Origin: a virus
Virus record (IMG/VR): IMGVR_UViG_3300021964_000013
DNA: 64,000 nucleotides
Strand: one strand, 5' to 3'
How positions within the stretch are numbered: position 1 is the first letter of the stretch; each line of letters starts with the position of its first letter. Positions 6,001 to 12,000 of the stretch are shown piece by piece. The position numbers are program-made.

Positions 6001-9000
6001 TTCAACAGTTGGTTGATTTCGCATTTGGTGGGTATACTCACTTAGGTTCTCCGATGAAGGAATCAAGGGAAGTACTTGAGATGATCAAAAAGAAGGGTAT
6101 AAAATATTACGGTGCTGAGGAGATAGTGAATAAACTAAATAGAAAATTTAAATCGGGTATTATATGATAAGATTAATTTGTGTCTTAGGTCATGGTTATG
6201 AATTGTTACCCCACTTCATCGAACATTATTCCAAGTTCGTTGATGAGATACAATTTGTGATATACGAATCTGAGATGTCCCCGAGGATTCTTAATAGATC
6301 CAAATCAATTATAAATCAATACGACAATGCAAAAATTGTAAAGGTTGTGAGGGATAGAGTGTATGATTGGGAGAAAGTAACCATATTATACAATATGATA
6401 AAATCTAAGAATAAAAAGGATTGGTGGGTAGTTGCCGATATTGATGAATTCCACTTATACCCCAATAATGACTTATCCAAAATCATTGATGAATGTGAAG
6501 ATAACCTTTGGACTATGGTGAGAGGTGGTTTCATTGACCGAGTGGGGGAGAATGGTGAGTTTCCTGAAATACAAAAAGACATTTCTCTATTTGAACAATT
6601 CCCTTATGCGGGATTTTTCAGATACCCACTCAGTAATGCTTGTCCTAACAAAGTTTGTGTGATGAGAGGTGATGTGGAATTAACCAATGGTCAACACTAC
6701 GCAATTATTGATAGTCACACCACATGGAGATGGCAGGGATGGAATCACCCAATCATAGCTCCATTCCAAGACTACTCAGTACAGGTACACCATTTTAAGT
6801 GGGATAAAACAGTAAAGGAAAGATTGAAGAGTGTTGGTGAGTTAAACCAACCTTATGCATTCTCAAAAGAATACATGACAATGTATAACGAACTTAAATC
6901 CACAAATTTTAAAGTGAATTTAAGAGATAGGGATTTTATGTTTTTAAAATCTAATAAACCTAATTTTAGTTCGTACAGACATTGGGATAAACTAATCAGA
7001 AAGATTGTGAGTATATGAGATTAGCATTAATAGTACCATATCGAGACCGAAGAGACGAGTTAGACGTATTTCTACCACATATGGTGGAGTTTTTATCTAA
7101 TAAACAAATAGACTATAAAATATTTGTTGCGGAGCAATCTGACGATAGACCCTTCAACTACGGTAAATTATGTAACGCGGTTGTAAATGAAATTAAAGAC
7201 AACTTCGATTATTTCTGTTTCCACGATGTTGATCTACTACCTAAGAACGATAGTTCTGAATATTATTATGTGGACACCCCTACTCAAATATTCGGATATA
7301 GAGAAGGTGATGGTACTGACTTACCCTACGAACAGTTCTTTGGTGGTGTTGTGATATTTCCAAAAGACGTATTTGACGAAATTAATGGATTCTCAAATGA
7401 TTATTGGGGTAAAGGATATATTGATTTAGATCTCCTACACAGGTGTGCAACATCCAAGGTTAAAATGAACAAAAAGTATGGATACTCTAATAATGAAATA
7501 TTCAAAACAGATTTTAAAGATAGGAAGATAAGTAGATATGGTTCGTTGATTTCATTACAACCTAAATCTATTTTTATGACTAAACCGTCGAATAATCTAT
7601 TGGATGATTTTACTATTTCATTTTTTTACAGGGAAGAGGAAATCCCTATAAACAAAAACACCTTCTTTAGGACACACAATGGTTGGGATTTTCAAGTATT
7701 CTCTAACGACAATCAGGTGATTGTTCAAATGTTCAATACCGATATGAATATGTTCCAAATCGAAATTAAAGATCTTGATTTATCAGTATTAAATCATTTT
7801 GTGGTGACACATGATAGTGAGAATAAGTATGTTCATATATACGTCAATTCAAATCTAAGTGAAGAGATTACCTATCATGGTGAGTTAAGGGTTAGGTCCG
7901 CGACATTGTTGATAGGTGATGTTGAAAACCACAACTTTATTAACCTATATGATTTTAAATTATTTAAGAGAAAATTAAATGATTTTGAGATCAGTAAAGA
8001 ATACTATTACGGTATAGATGCGGATTGGTTAGATCTTAGAAAACCTTGTCTTTTTAAGGAAAATTCCGTATTATTAGATATGACCGCATCGGTATGGCAG
8101 ATTGGTGGAATGATTGACATTAAAACGAAATTTCATTTTAAAGATCCCACAGAAATATACACTCCGAACAGGAAGGAAGGTCAGTTTGATATCGAAGGAT
8201 TAAAATTCGAAGAATTAATCGATACCTATGATCCTGACATAATTGAAAACAAACTAACCTTTATGGATTTATTAGAAGGTAAAATAGATAGTAAGAAATA
8301 TGGGTTGAACTCAATTAATTACAAAGTCTTGAATAAAACAACATATGACGATAACACAGAATGGTACAAGATAGTTACATAGAGTTTACAGAACCCGTAG
8401 TTAATAAATTGGAGGGGTTTGCGGACACCTTAGAAAATATCAGATACGAATCTGATGATTGGTCAGTTGTGGTATCACTCTTTTTGTTGTATCTCGAATC
8501 TAATCTTAAAGAATCTAACATCTACGATTTTGTTTTTAAAACGGACGAGAGTAAGTCCGTAAAATTGAAATTACAAGAAGAAAAAAAGATCTTATTCGAT
8601 GAAATTAATAAGAACGTTAAGAGGTTAGAAGAGTCACCGAACATTGTAAATGAAAAGTGGGATCAGGTAAGGGAACATTACGACACTATAAAAGAAACCG
8701 AGGATACCTTAAATTCTTCCATTGAAAAACATTATGAAAATATAAAATCCATAGAGGAGGAACTACAAAGGAAAGTACAGGAGGAATACGACCAAATTAA
8801 GAAATTGGAAACCGAACGAAATGGTATTGTCGATGGGGAATATTTTGAGATTAAGTCTTTAGAATCCGATATCGAAGACATACATAAAAACACTTCTACC
8901 ATAAGTGCAGAAAATGACGACTTATATAAGAAGGTGGAGGTTATTGATCATAAACTTTCTGAAATAGAAAATCACATAGAAGATTCTGAATGGAAAGTGG

Positions 9001-12000
9001 AATTGGATAGTCCCGAAGAGAAGGTATTCGAGACCATCAAAAATAATTTAATATTAAATAAAAGACTAAAATATGGCGACATCTGATAAAGAGAATTTAA
9101 ATAAGAGGGGTGTAGAAGCCCTCGAAAGAATTGCAGATTCATTAGAAGGAATAAACAATTTTGTTTACGAATTAGATACCGCATCATGGTCCCAAAGACT
9201 TGAATGGTACCTGAATGAGTTTTATGAATTAAGCAAAGCCAAGACTATTGGTGGGACAAATAGACCAAAACGAGAATATGAAGAAGAATCTGGCGATAAT
9301 AGTACCGTATAGGGATAGACCCAATCATCTTAGAACGTTCATCAAGTATATGAGTGATTTCCTACCCCAAAATGGGATAGAGGAATATCAAATATTCGTG
9401 GTGGAACAGTCGGATAACGGACCTTTTAATAGAGGTAAACTTCTAAATATTGGATCTAAAATTGCAATTGATGAAGGGTTCGATTACTTGTGCTTTCATG
9501 ATGTTGATTTATTACCTATCGATGTAGACTACAGTTATCCAAAATACCCAACATCATTAGTTTCTAAAGTTGAGAATAAAGAGGGTGATATATTGTTTAG
9601 ATATTTCGGTGGTGTAACCATCTTTAATACCGAGGACTTCGTTGGTATCAACGGATATTCAAATAACTATTGGGGATGGGGATTCGAAGATGACGACTTA
9701 TTCCATAGAGTTACTCATGGTGGTTTATTCTTCGACACTGAGAAAGTTGGTGTGGACAATTACAGTAAGTATTCTGTCGAGATTATCGAGGATGGATACT
9801 GCAGAGTTGAGATAGAAGAAGACTTCTTAACCAACGATTTCAATATTGATACAACAATTAAAGTTAATTCAAGGTACTTTAACGAAAATAAAGAATATGA
9901 TGAGTACCCATTAATTTGTATACCGGGTCATAATATAGGTTTATTCTACAACTCATTCAACCGTTTCTTTTTTCAGGTCTTCGATAAGGATAAGAAACCT
10001 TATTCAATCACCACTGATGTCTTAGATGATGTCACATCATCATTTAGAATCATTAAAAAAGATAGAAATGTTTCTATGTTTATGAATGACGTGTTTGTTG
10101 GTGAGATTACAATGGATAATGACATATTAGATCTACAAAATAAGTTTATGTATGTGGGATCTATTTCAGATAAGGAAAGAGTTGAGTTTGATATGAACTT
10201 AATAACTCTAAAGTTGAATGGTCTTAAATGTTCAACAACAGATCTAACGATGTATAAGTCACAAGTAACCGATCGAGAAATTAACCATTCAACATCGATA
10301 CCTAAACCAATAAGAAGGAATGGGATTTTTAGGGAGTTATACCATGACAACAATGCATCAGTAGAAAAGAATTGGATACATAAGGAAACGAGAAGTAATC
10401 AAATCTATTATAACAACATAGTAAAACAAGGATTAAACGATTTTACTAATGAGGGTTTGAATAGTTTAGAATATGAATTAATAAAAGATAAGAACCTTAA
10501 AGGTTATAGAAAATTAACAGTCCAAATATGAGTCACAAATTAGGTATTTGTATACCATATAGAGATAGGGAGGAACACTTAAAGAAATTGGTACCCCACT
10601 TAAGAAAACATTTAAATAGGCAGGGTATAGATCATAAATTTTATGTTGCTCACCAAGTCGATGATAAGTTATTTAATAGGGGTGCAATGAAAAATATCGC
10701 AGCAAAAAGAGCGTTCGAGGATGGATGTGATTACATTGCTTGGCATGATGTTGACATGTTACCCTATGATGAGACTTGTGATTATTCGTATCCTGAAGAG
10801 ACCCCAATACATATCGCCACTCAACTATCAAAGTACGGATATGATATGAGTTATGATCAATACTTCGGTGGTGTCATCCTTTTCAATAAGGAACAGGTTG
10901 AAAGAACTAACGGATACTCCAACGATTATTGGGATTGGGGTATGGAGGATGACGACCTGTTTTGGAGGGCTTACTATGAGGGGTATACCACCGGTAAAGT
11001 GATAAGCAATAAAACTAATAGACCTTCGTTATACTTTAATGGAGATACTTCCCATGTTGAAATTCCATCGAATAGGAGGGTTGTGGAGTACTTAAATAGG
11101 AATCATACGATAACCTTATTAGTCAAAACCCAACAACAAGAGGATAAGGTTCCAATATGGTTAGTGGGTGATGAGGATAGACAGTTCATCGAGTACCCAA
11201 TCTTTAGAAAAAGTGGTGGTTTCAACTATGGGATTTCATTTAACAATTCAAGAGCAATGACCTTTCAATTATTTGATATGACAAGGGCACCAATATATAA
11301 TTGGATAAAGAGGTTTGAGAATATGTGGACAAGACTTACCATATCCATTGATGCGGAGAATAAGAAAATGTATTGTTACGTAAATGATGAGTTGGCGACC
11401 AATGTTAGGAATAAAAAGGAAGAAAGACCATTAGATTTTGATAATAGATTATTAAGATATGATCTAAGAAATCCATTTTATTTAGGTTTCGACCCACAAG
11501 CAAACACAAGACTCAAAGGTGAAATTGCCGAGTGTAAGGTATATAATAGATTCTTCACACCCGAAGAGATATCACATGTCTTTGAAGGTGGTAGTGATGG
11601 TGCAGTTATGGATCTCGACTTTGAAAATATCAGTGATGGTAAAATCACAGATAAGGTTAATGGTATTGTTGGTACTTTAAATGATATAGAAATTAAAAAT
11701 ACCGACATCGAAATCGTTGAAAACATACTACCATATAGAAGAGATGGTAAGTTTTACTGTTTACCACATTTGGACTTAGGTTTTGTTAATGGTAAGTGGC
11801 ATCAAGGAGAAACAACCGCGAAGAATGAAAAAAGATTCGTTAGGGAGATGCAACAAAAGAAAATCGACTATAAAAACGACGGAATGTCTAATCTCAAATA
11901 TGAATTAGTGGAAACTATTATGTTTGACGATGATTGTGAAATGTTAAACGTAAAACTGTAATGTCAAATACTAATTTTGAAGAGACTAAAAATAAATTAA

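Follow-up and report, generated by a model that had tools for sequence, protein, structure and literature searches.

A laminin G-like domain nested within family 7 glycosyltransferases of an uncultured large aquatic phage

A stretch of 64,000 nucleotides from an uncultured large aquatic phage (IMG/VR record IMGVR_UViG_3300021964_000013, called here the window) encodes proteins in which the two parts of a glycosyltransferase family 7 (GT7) domain are separated by roughly 200 residues of other sequence. Is each of these proteins a single catalytic domain opened by a guest domain, and what might such a guest do? An original prediction had described three GT7 paralogs in positions 7015–11961, each with a laminin G (LamG)-like beta sandwich inside the catalytic fold. 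The three open reading frames (ORFs), referred to as c1, c2 and c3, are present as described, and the motifs quoted for them are found in their sequences. However, the range does not hold GT7 genes only: it contains four plus-strand ORFs, in the order c1, an unrelated acidic coiled-coil ORF of 241 amino acids, c2 and c3 (Table 1). The three paralogs share 27–31% overall identity in pairwise comparisons, with invariant positions also within the insert, and no signal peptide or membrane anchor was found in any of them.

All three proteins match the Pfam families Glyco_transf_7N (E 1e-20 to 1e-23) and Glyco_transf_7C, the latter match always ending at about position 62 of 78. Laminin_G_3 is matched by c1 (residues 194–326, E 5e-9) and c3 (residues 172–349, E 2e-9). 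A phmmer search of the Protein Data Bank (PDB) with c3 finds B4GalT7 and B4GalT1 (E 3e-35). We used an exhaustive HMMER search to obtain 11 metagenomic GT7 proteins of only 211–240 amino acids, from which a compact-GT7 profile of 222 positions was built. Over its full length this profile aligns with B4GalT1 (E 5e-62), and it matches c1, c2 and c3 each in two pieces that join at about profile position 152. The compact homologues and B4GalT1 run uninterrupted through this junction, as expected from the earlier statement that the two segments adjoin in ordinary GT7 enzymes. Per-domain hmmsearch alignments were used instead of MAFFT global alignment, which misplaced the RRxGxF..H segment that follows the insert, or hmmalign, which dropped the C-terminal piece.

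An AlphaFold2 model of c3, built with 31 homologues, has a predicted local distance difference test (pLDDT) score of 86 and a predicted template modelling (pTM) score of 0.83. Structural alignment with VIA superposes the model (residues 1–477) on residues 178–398 of bovine B4GalT1 (1tvy) with a Z score of 26.5 and a root-mean-square deviation of 2.2 Å over 217 aligned residues. Because the N-terminal piece of c3 comprises only about 155 residues, the C-terminal piece belongs to the superposed fold. The intervening region (model residues 160–398, approximately) forms a LamG/pentraxin jelly roll that matches PAPP-A (Z 21.4), BACOVA_03559 (4dqa, Z 20.6) and PTX3 (Z 19.3), with structural matches overall at Z 18–21. 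Structure prediction, which had been proposed as a check, thus reveals both a concanavalin A (ConA)-like insert and a C-terminal segment that completes the GT7 fold. Searched by itself against the PDB with phmmer, this 80-residue segment of c3 gives no match, and both the two-piece profile and the structural superposition are needed to place it.

Together, these results establish that the GT7 domain is discontinuous in c1, c2 and c3, with a ConA-like domain nested inside it in c1 and c3 and probably a trimmed one in c2. The GT-A fold is assigned to c1 and c2 from the profile match, and to c3 from the structure model as well. The extra residues that separate the EDDD and DGLxxLxY motifs number either about 0–40 or 180–320 in the 347 family members compared, a bimodal distribution with no values between, which indicates a discrete insertion rather than gradual drift. 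The inserts of c1 (226 residues) and c3 (242 residues) fall within the 200–260 residues originally estimated, but that of c2 (190 residues) makes the estimate slightly high. A circular permutation of the LamG fold, considered on account of an LDF...D..G strand motif at the end of the insert, was dropped because sequential structural alignments span the whole insert. Comparisons by hhalign of single sequences (the free LamG proteins described below and the c1 and c2 inserts) with an alignment of c3 inserts gave weak probabilities of 2–22% and were not used as evidence.

The position of the insert relative to the active site can be described in the numbering of the bovine enzyme. By transitive alignment, the break falls in B4GalT1 between GMSV and SRPNAVIGKCRM(344)IRH(347). 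The hairpin that receives the insert corresponds to bovine residues 331–340 or thereabouts, some 10 residues ahead of the C-terminal metal ligand and of the hinge at the N-terminal end of the long flexible loop. The loop His, described in the original prediction as binding Mn in beta-1,4-GalT1, has a counterpart in c2 and c3, but HMMER aligns this conserved His of RRxGxFxxLxH to B4GalT1 position 344 and not to His347, in a register that is uncertain by about three residues. Position 344 is Met in the wild-type enzyme and His in the matched M344H mutant chains. The stretch after His414 of c3 is the least confident part of the modelled GT7 fold (pLDDT 53–73), which would suit a mobile loop.

The catalytic motifs of GT7 enzymes are intact in c2 and c3. 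HDVD, which holds the DxD motif (D252-V-D254 in bovine B4GalT1), is present in all three paralogs. The W-G-W-G-x-E-D-D-D motif, which includes the equivalents of Trp314 and of the catalytic-base Asp (D318), reads YWGWGFEDDD in c2 and YWDWGMEDDD in c3, and the motif after the insert reads RRNGIFRELYH in c2 and RRDGKFYCLPH in c3, where the last residue is His414. The late motifs of the three proteins read GLNSLEY, GMSNLKY and GLNSINY. Conservation is strong: representatives of c2- and c3-type clusters carry HD[VI]D in 52 of 52 cases and the His in 50 of 52, and within the c3 orthogroup the His is found in 119 of 120 members and a Tyr before FGG in 120 of 120. Thus the DxD motif, the catalytic-base Asp motif, the His and the flexible loop are all kept. 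In B4GalT1, Tyr at position 289 is tied to the choice of a hexose over an N-acetylhexosamine (HexNAc) donor. The equivalent residue is the Tyr before FGG, which is also present in c2, and it hints at a hexose rather than a HexNAc donor.

The c1 protein departs from this pattern. Its motif reads YWGKGYIDLD, in which the equivalents of D318 and D320 are kept and those of W314, E317 and D319 are replaced, and the segment after the insert reads RKEGQF...KF, with Phe in place of His. We compared 33 orthologues of c1 (43–100% identity), in which WGKGY(V/I)D(L/M)D is strictly conserved, the His is absent from 32, HD[VI]D is present in 30, and HDVN, which lacks the DxD Asp, occurs in the other three. 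Deeper members of the c1-type clade retain E-D-L-D and the His, from which it follows that the loss was stepwise. A c1-type third copy is present in 3 of 79 related IMG/VR viral loci, the set over which all locus counts below are taken.

The suggestion that c1 is a pseudo-enzyme subunit is therefore plausible only. In its favour are the replaced positions, the missing His and the HDVN variants, which suggest relaxed pressure on the metal site. Nevertheless, c1 is almost as likely to be a working transferase that uses another donor or acceptor, given that the equivalents of the catalytic base and of D320 are invariant, that the variant motif is strict down to 43% identity, that HD[VI]D is kept in 30 of the 33 orthologues, and that the canonical residues disappeared step by step. 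We regard c1 as a conserved, non-canonical paralog for which a non-catalytic role is plausible. Such a role has a parallel in chondroitin synthase, where CHPF, a non-catalytic GT7-like paralog, stabilizes its active partner CHSY (PMC13389171). This precedent is an analogy, as CHSY and CHPF are eukaryotic Golgi proteins with GT31 and GT7 domains and no LamG, and a pairing of c1 with c2 or c3 is a proposal.

The family to which these proteins belong is large. Around the length of c3 it comprises 1682 clusters at 90% identity, at least 55 of the top 150 representatives at 50% identity are split forms, and all source records name the protein ‘hypothetical protein’. With no more than two peptide patterns, 348 IMG/VR contigs that encode a relative are recovered, some of them up to 335 kb in length. 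A scan of 185,579 GTDB species genomes with the same two patterns yields three contigs of metagenome-assembled genomes (Flavobacteriaceae, Pelagibacterales and Anaeromicropila), which may be mis-binned phage. The split GT7 family is almost wholly viral. Searches elsewhere gave little: tblastn with c3 finds no match among 50,697 cultured and deposited phage records, which is weak evidence of absence; a fold search of BFVD finds no viral UniProt protein that covers both domains; and a literature search returned no paper on the nested GT7–LamG architecture. The nested design is common in uncultured phages and unstudied. Aquatic jumbo phages called moraphages, with genomes up to 307 kbp, predicted Bacteroidota hosts and four core glycosyltransferase groups, are described in PMC12619734.

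In a tree built from the GT7 core, split proteins occupy two clades, one of c2 and c3 type (52 rows) and one of c1 type (12 rows). An arrangement that holds all 64 split rows together is not rejected and scores better (approximately unbiased test, p-AU 0.93), so one ancestral insertion followed by duplication is the simplest history. Three candidates for split forms (P0182, P0143 and P0154) were rejected and removed from the set. In these proteins of 550–1686 amino acids, GT7 domains that are each complete and contiguous are arrayed in tandem, two or three per protein, which is another way of multiplying GT7 modules.

Several known systems resemble the phage proteins in part. The match to B4GalT1 and B4GalT7 structures (1TVY, 1NF5, 2AE7, 4IRQ and 3LW6) extends over both pieces of the GT-A domain, with Z 25–26.5 and 31–36% identity over 208–217 aligned residues, and c2 and c3 share with these enzymes HDVD, the W-G-W-G-x-E-D-D-D motif, the His, the flexible loop and the DGLxxLxY strand. 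Unlike them, the phage proteins have a LamG insert of 190–242 residues and no stem or transmembrane region; they are phage-encoded and begin at the equivalent of bovine residue 178. The closest contiguous relatives are compact prokaryotic or viral GT7 proteins (such as P0196, P0177 and P0190), which have 33–45% identity and the same ends and motifs, but lack the insert and lie outside both split clades on the core tree. The resemblance of the c3 insert and of a free LamG protein to PAPP-A LamG, 4DQA and PTX3 is a likeness of fold alone, at 9–18% identity.

Other enzymes offer parallels in design. In lactose synthase, the lysozyme-fold subunit alpha-lactalbumin binds B4GalT1 reversibly near the flexible loop and acceptor site and alters the choice of acceptor (PDB 1NF5 and 1YRO). 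The analogy has limits, because the phage module is a LamG fold within the enzyme's own chain and is only proposed to touch the acceptor site. Polypeptide N-acetylgalactosaminyltransferases (ppGalNAc-Ts, family GT27) combine a GT-A domain with a C-terminal ricin B-type beta-trefoil lectin that guides substrate selection. Here too the analogy is of design only, as the phage proteins fall outside GT27, with a GT7 catalytic domain and a nested LamG module.

The split GT7 genes are part of a conserved cassette, whose order is methyltransferase, GT2-like protein, two split GT7 proteins, radical SAM protein rS1, an optional free LamG protein and radical SAM protein rS2 (Table 1). At least two tandem split GT7 ORFs occur in 77 of the 79 loci, and on one 334-kb contig the entire order is kept at 44–64% identity. 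The free LamG-like gene noted in the original prediction proves to encode a ConA-like jelly roll: its AlphaFold2 model (33 homologues) has a pLDDT of 90.7 and matches PAPP-A LamG with Z 18.4 (2.4 Å, 183 aligned residues), 4dqa with Z 17.7 and PTX3 with Z 16.4. The top structural matches of this protein and of the c3 insert are identical in kind (PAPP-A LamG and 4dqa), and the free protein has no match in Pfam. Translation of c2 probably begins with the ATG at 9278 (Met11), which would give 417 amino acids, because this position fits the N terminus of the family. The acidic ORF that precedes c2 overlaps the end of c1 by 22 bases and has sub-threshold Pfam coiled-coil matches only; a homologue is found in one of the 79 loci (L007), which also has a c1-type gene.

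Table 1. Genes and domain pieces of the split GT7 cassette, in window positions
Feature	Positions	Strand	Length or residues	Evidence and occurrence
Second free LamG-like protein (Laminin_G_3), upstream of cassette	1591..2265	+		Pfam E 5e-14; homologues upstream of the methyltransferase in 28/79 loci
Methyltransferase (Methyltransf_24), first cassette gene	4375..5100	+		Pfam E 4e-12; 69/79 loci, upstream of GT7 pair
GT2-like protein (Glyco_tranf_2_4), directly upstream of split GT7 genes	6164..7018	+		Pfam E 3e-6; 71/79 loci
c1, split GT7 paralog, variant type	7015..8382	+	455 aa	Pfam 7N, 7C and Laminin_G_3; two-piece compact-GT7 profile match
c1 GT7 N-terminal piece	7018–7485	+	residues 2–157	compact-GT7 profile
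c1 LamG insert	7486–8163	+	residues 158–383 (226 aa)	compact-GT7 profile
c1 GT7 C-terminal piece	8164–8373	+	residues 384–453	profile, independent E 1e-5
Acidic coiled-coil ORF between c1 and c2, not GT7	8361..9086	+	241 aa	Pfam
c2, split GT7 paralog	9248..10531	+	427 aa from TTG 9248	Pfam 7N and 7C only; two-piece profile match
c2 GT7 N-terminal piece	9284–9733	+	residues 13–162	compact-GT7 profile
c2 shortened insert	9734–10303	+	residues 163–352 (190 aa)	compact-GT7 profile
c2 GT7 C-terminal piece	10304–10522	+	residues 353–425	profile, independent E 2e-9
c3, split GT7 paralog	10528..11961	+	477 aa	Pfam; PDB phmmer; AlphaFold2; VIA
c3 GT7 N-terminal piece	10534–10992	+	residues 3–155	compact-GT7 profile
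c3 LamG insert	10993–11718	+	residues 156–397 (242 aa)	compact-GT7 profile
c3 GT7 C-terminal piece	11719–11958	+	residues 398–477	profile, independent E 2e-11
Radical SAM protein rS1, directly downstream of split GT7 pair	11961..13343	+		Pfam Radical_SAM E 5e-9; 70/79 loci
Free ConA-like/LamG protein, between two radical SAM genes	13340..14005	+	221 aa	AlphaFold2 and VIA; 23/79 loci
Radical SAM paralog rS2	14007..15599	+		Pfam E 3e-4; 51/79 loci

Beyond the cassette, the window encodes a DUF6734 protein, more radical SAM proteins, a 2OG oxygenase, a DegT protein and a UDP-glucose dehydrogenase. At least five radical SAM paralogs are interleaved with glycosyltransferase and sugar-nucleotide genes in 11961–18093 and 22812–24020, one of which has a SPASM match on the N-terminal side of its radical SAM core. 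At 27079–29319, the gene for a NodU/CmcH-like carbamoyltransferase (phrog_1601, E 1e-109) precedes one for an APS-kinase-like P-loop kinase, a pair that suggests carbamoylated, and perhaps sulfated or phosphorylated, sugars. Apart from a DUF7310 coiled-coil region (E 3e-17), little is recognizable in a single ORF of 3843 amino acids at 29710–41241; its product may be a giant fibre or structural protein and could itself be glycosylated. It is followed at 41253–44649 by three tandem phrog_1417 paralogs. The one at 42411–43523, compared with the phage collection, finds relatives in T4-like cyanomyoviruses of Synechococcus and Prochlorococcus alone, namely a structural ‘sericin 1 precursor-like protein’ (identity about 33%). 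Two adjacent ORFs at 48994–50912, one with a weak Phenol_MetA_deg outer-membrane channel-like match and one resembling DUF401/CitMHS transporters (E 2e-10), form a transport-type pair that is unusual phage cargo. Finally, a thymidylate-synthase homologue of 348 amino acids, which may be a true ThyA or a pyrimidine hydroxymethylase, is encoded at 60752–61798. Its best deposited relatives are in uncultured huge phages of 630–640 kb (about 54% identity) and in Flavobacterium phages (51%).

What, then, might these enzymes do? The reading that we favour, and consider reasonably probable, is that they are cytoplasmic GT-A enzymes of family GT7 in which the LamG domain aids acceptor use in cis, that they build a virion-type glycan, and that c1 is a divergent copy. 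In one ancestral event, a LamG/ConA-like jelly roll would have entered the surface hairpin before the C-terminal metal ligand and flexible loop. As Mn-dependent inverting transferases, c2 and c3 would take hexoses from UDP-sugars and add them one after another in beta linkage, and the LamG domain would hold or select the acceptor beside the loop that folds over the donor. A modified glycan would thereby be produced in the course of infection, carried most probably by a structural protein of the phage. The third copy, c1, is specific to its lineage and has lost canonical residues for donor, acceptor and metal; it may serve as a non-catalytic partner or perform a different chemistry. Lectin-guided building of a phage glycan is probably the function, and the viral cassette and the sugar-nucleotide genes of the window (DegT, UDP-glucose dehydrogenase and carbamoyltransferase) speak for a glycan product. 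Glycosylation of phage virions has precedent (Freeman et al. 2023, as cited in PMC12619734).

Several observations weigh against this reading. Across 63 diverse inserts no conserved polar ligand site was found that would back the original suggestion that the module could set substrate choice or processivity, and the conserved positions are structural only (FNG, G231, N286, G320, G331, D364 and D375 in c3 numbering). The 190-residue insert of c2 has no Pfam LamG match of its own. It would be a trimmed LamG domain judged by descent, given that five relatives in the c2 clade carry Laminin_G_3 at the equivalent place (E 1e-10 to 4e-18), the nearest relative of c2 (P0244) having E 0.03 only. Structural genes lie at least 16 kb from the GT7 genes in the window, such that a virion target is argued from the neighbourhood, and a peptide or small molecule as the product would also be compatible with so many radical SAM genes. 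The LamG domain itself could be a structural or oligomerization module, for instance one that pairs the tandem paralogs or docks on an assembly intermediate. We consider it unlikely that the insert is no lectin at all, even though its conservation is confined to Gly, Asn and hydrophobic core positions, the c2 copy is shortened and degenerate, the pentraxin-like folds that the c3 insert matches oligomerize, and inactive GT7 paralogs stabilize active ones in chondroitin synthase (PMC13389171). The insertion adjoins the loop that in B4GalT1 makes up the acceptor site, and the insert has been retained for long, across at least 55 clusters at 50% identity.

Two further alternatives concern the product rather than the insert. 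In the infected cell, the cassette might remodel a host envelope glycan (lipopolysaccharide, capsule or S-layer glycan), thereby excluding superinfecting phages or blocking re-adsorption of progeny, with the LamG domain binding the host glycan. Serotype-changing phage glycosyltransferases are well known (reviewed in PMC12619734) and sugar-nucleotide and sugar-modifying genes abound in the cassette, but c1, c2 and c3 have neither membrane anchor nor signal peptide, the ORFs scanned include no Wzx/Wzy-type flippase or polymerase, and large, apparently lytic phages carry the cassette as a core element among structural-type genes. Envelope remodelling is on these grounds quite improbable. Fainter still is the prospect that the cassette makes a glycosylated peptide or small molecule (of the kind of a ribosomally synthesized and post-translationally modified peptide, or nucleoside-like) or hypermodifies phage DNA with sugars, such that the GT7 enzymes decorate this product and not a virion protein. 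Radical SAM/SPASM-type paralogs do flank the GT7 pair in 70 of the 79 loci, the window does hold a thymidylate-synthase homologue, and there are documented cases of DNA hypermodification by viral glycosyltransferases (Pyle et al. 2024, cited in PMC12619734). However, no precursor peptide gene was identified, and DegT, UDP-glucose dehydrogenase and carbamoyltransferase are typical of genes for glycan building blocks. Furthermore, to our knowledge none of the phage DNA glycosyltransferases belongs to GT7.

A bolder form of the favoured reading, which we put forward as a long shot, holds that the LamG domain is a built-in specifier, an in-cis counterpart of alpha-lactalbumin that grips a protein or glycan acceptor, such as a repeat of a giant fibre, and is coupled to closure of the loop. 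Such tandem paralogs might then form an assembly line for a defined, radical-SAM-modified virion glycan in a widespread lineage of large aquatic phages, and c1, where it occurs, would be a non-catalytic scaffold of that line.

GT7 enzymes are best known from the animal Golgi, and the split proteins described here form a large, unnamed and nearly phage-only branch of that family. If the LamG domain steers the choice of acceptor, it would represent a natural and compact form of in-cis targeting in a GT-A enzyme, one that could be useful in glyco-engineering. The conserved cassette points to a glycan made by a large number of aquatic phages of large size, and such a glycan could affect the host recognition, stability or grazing of these abundant viruses.

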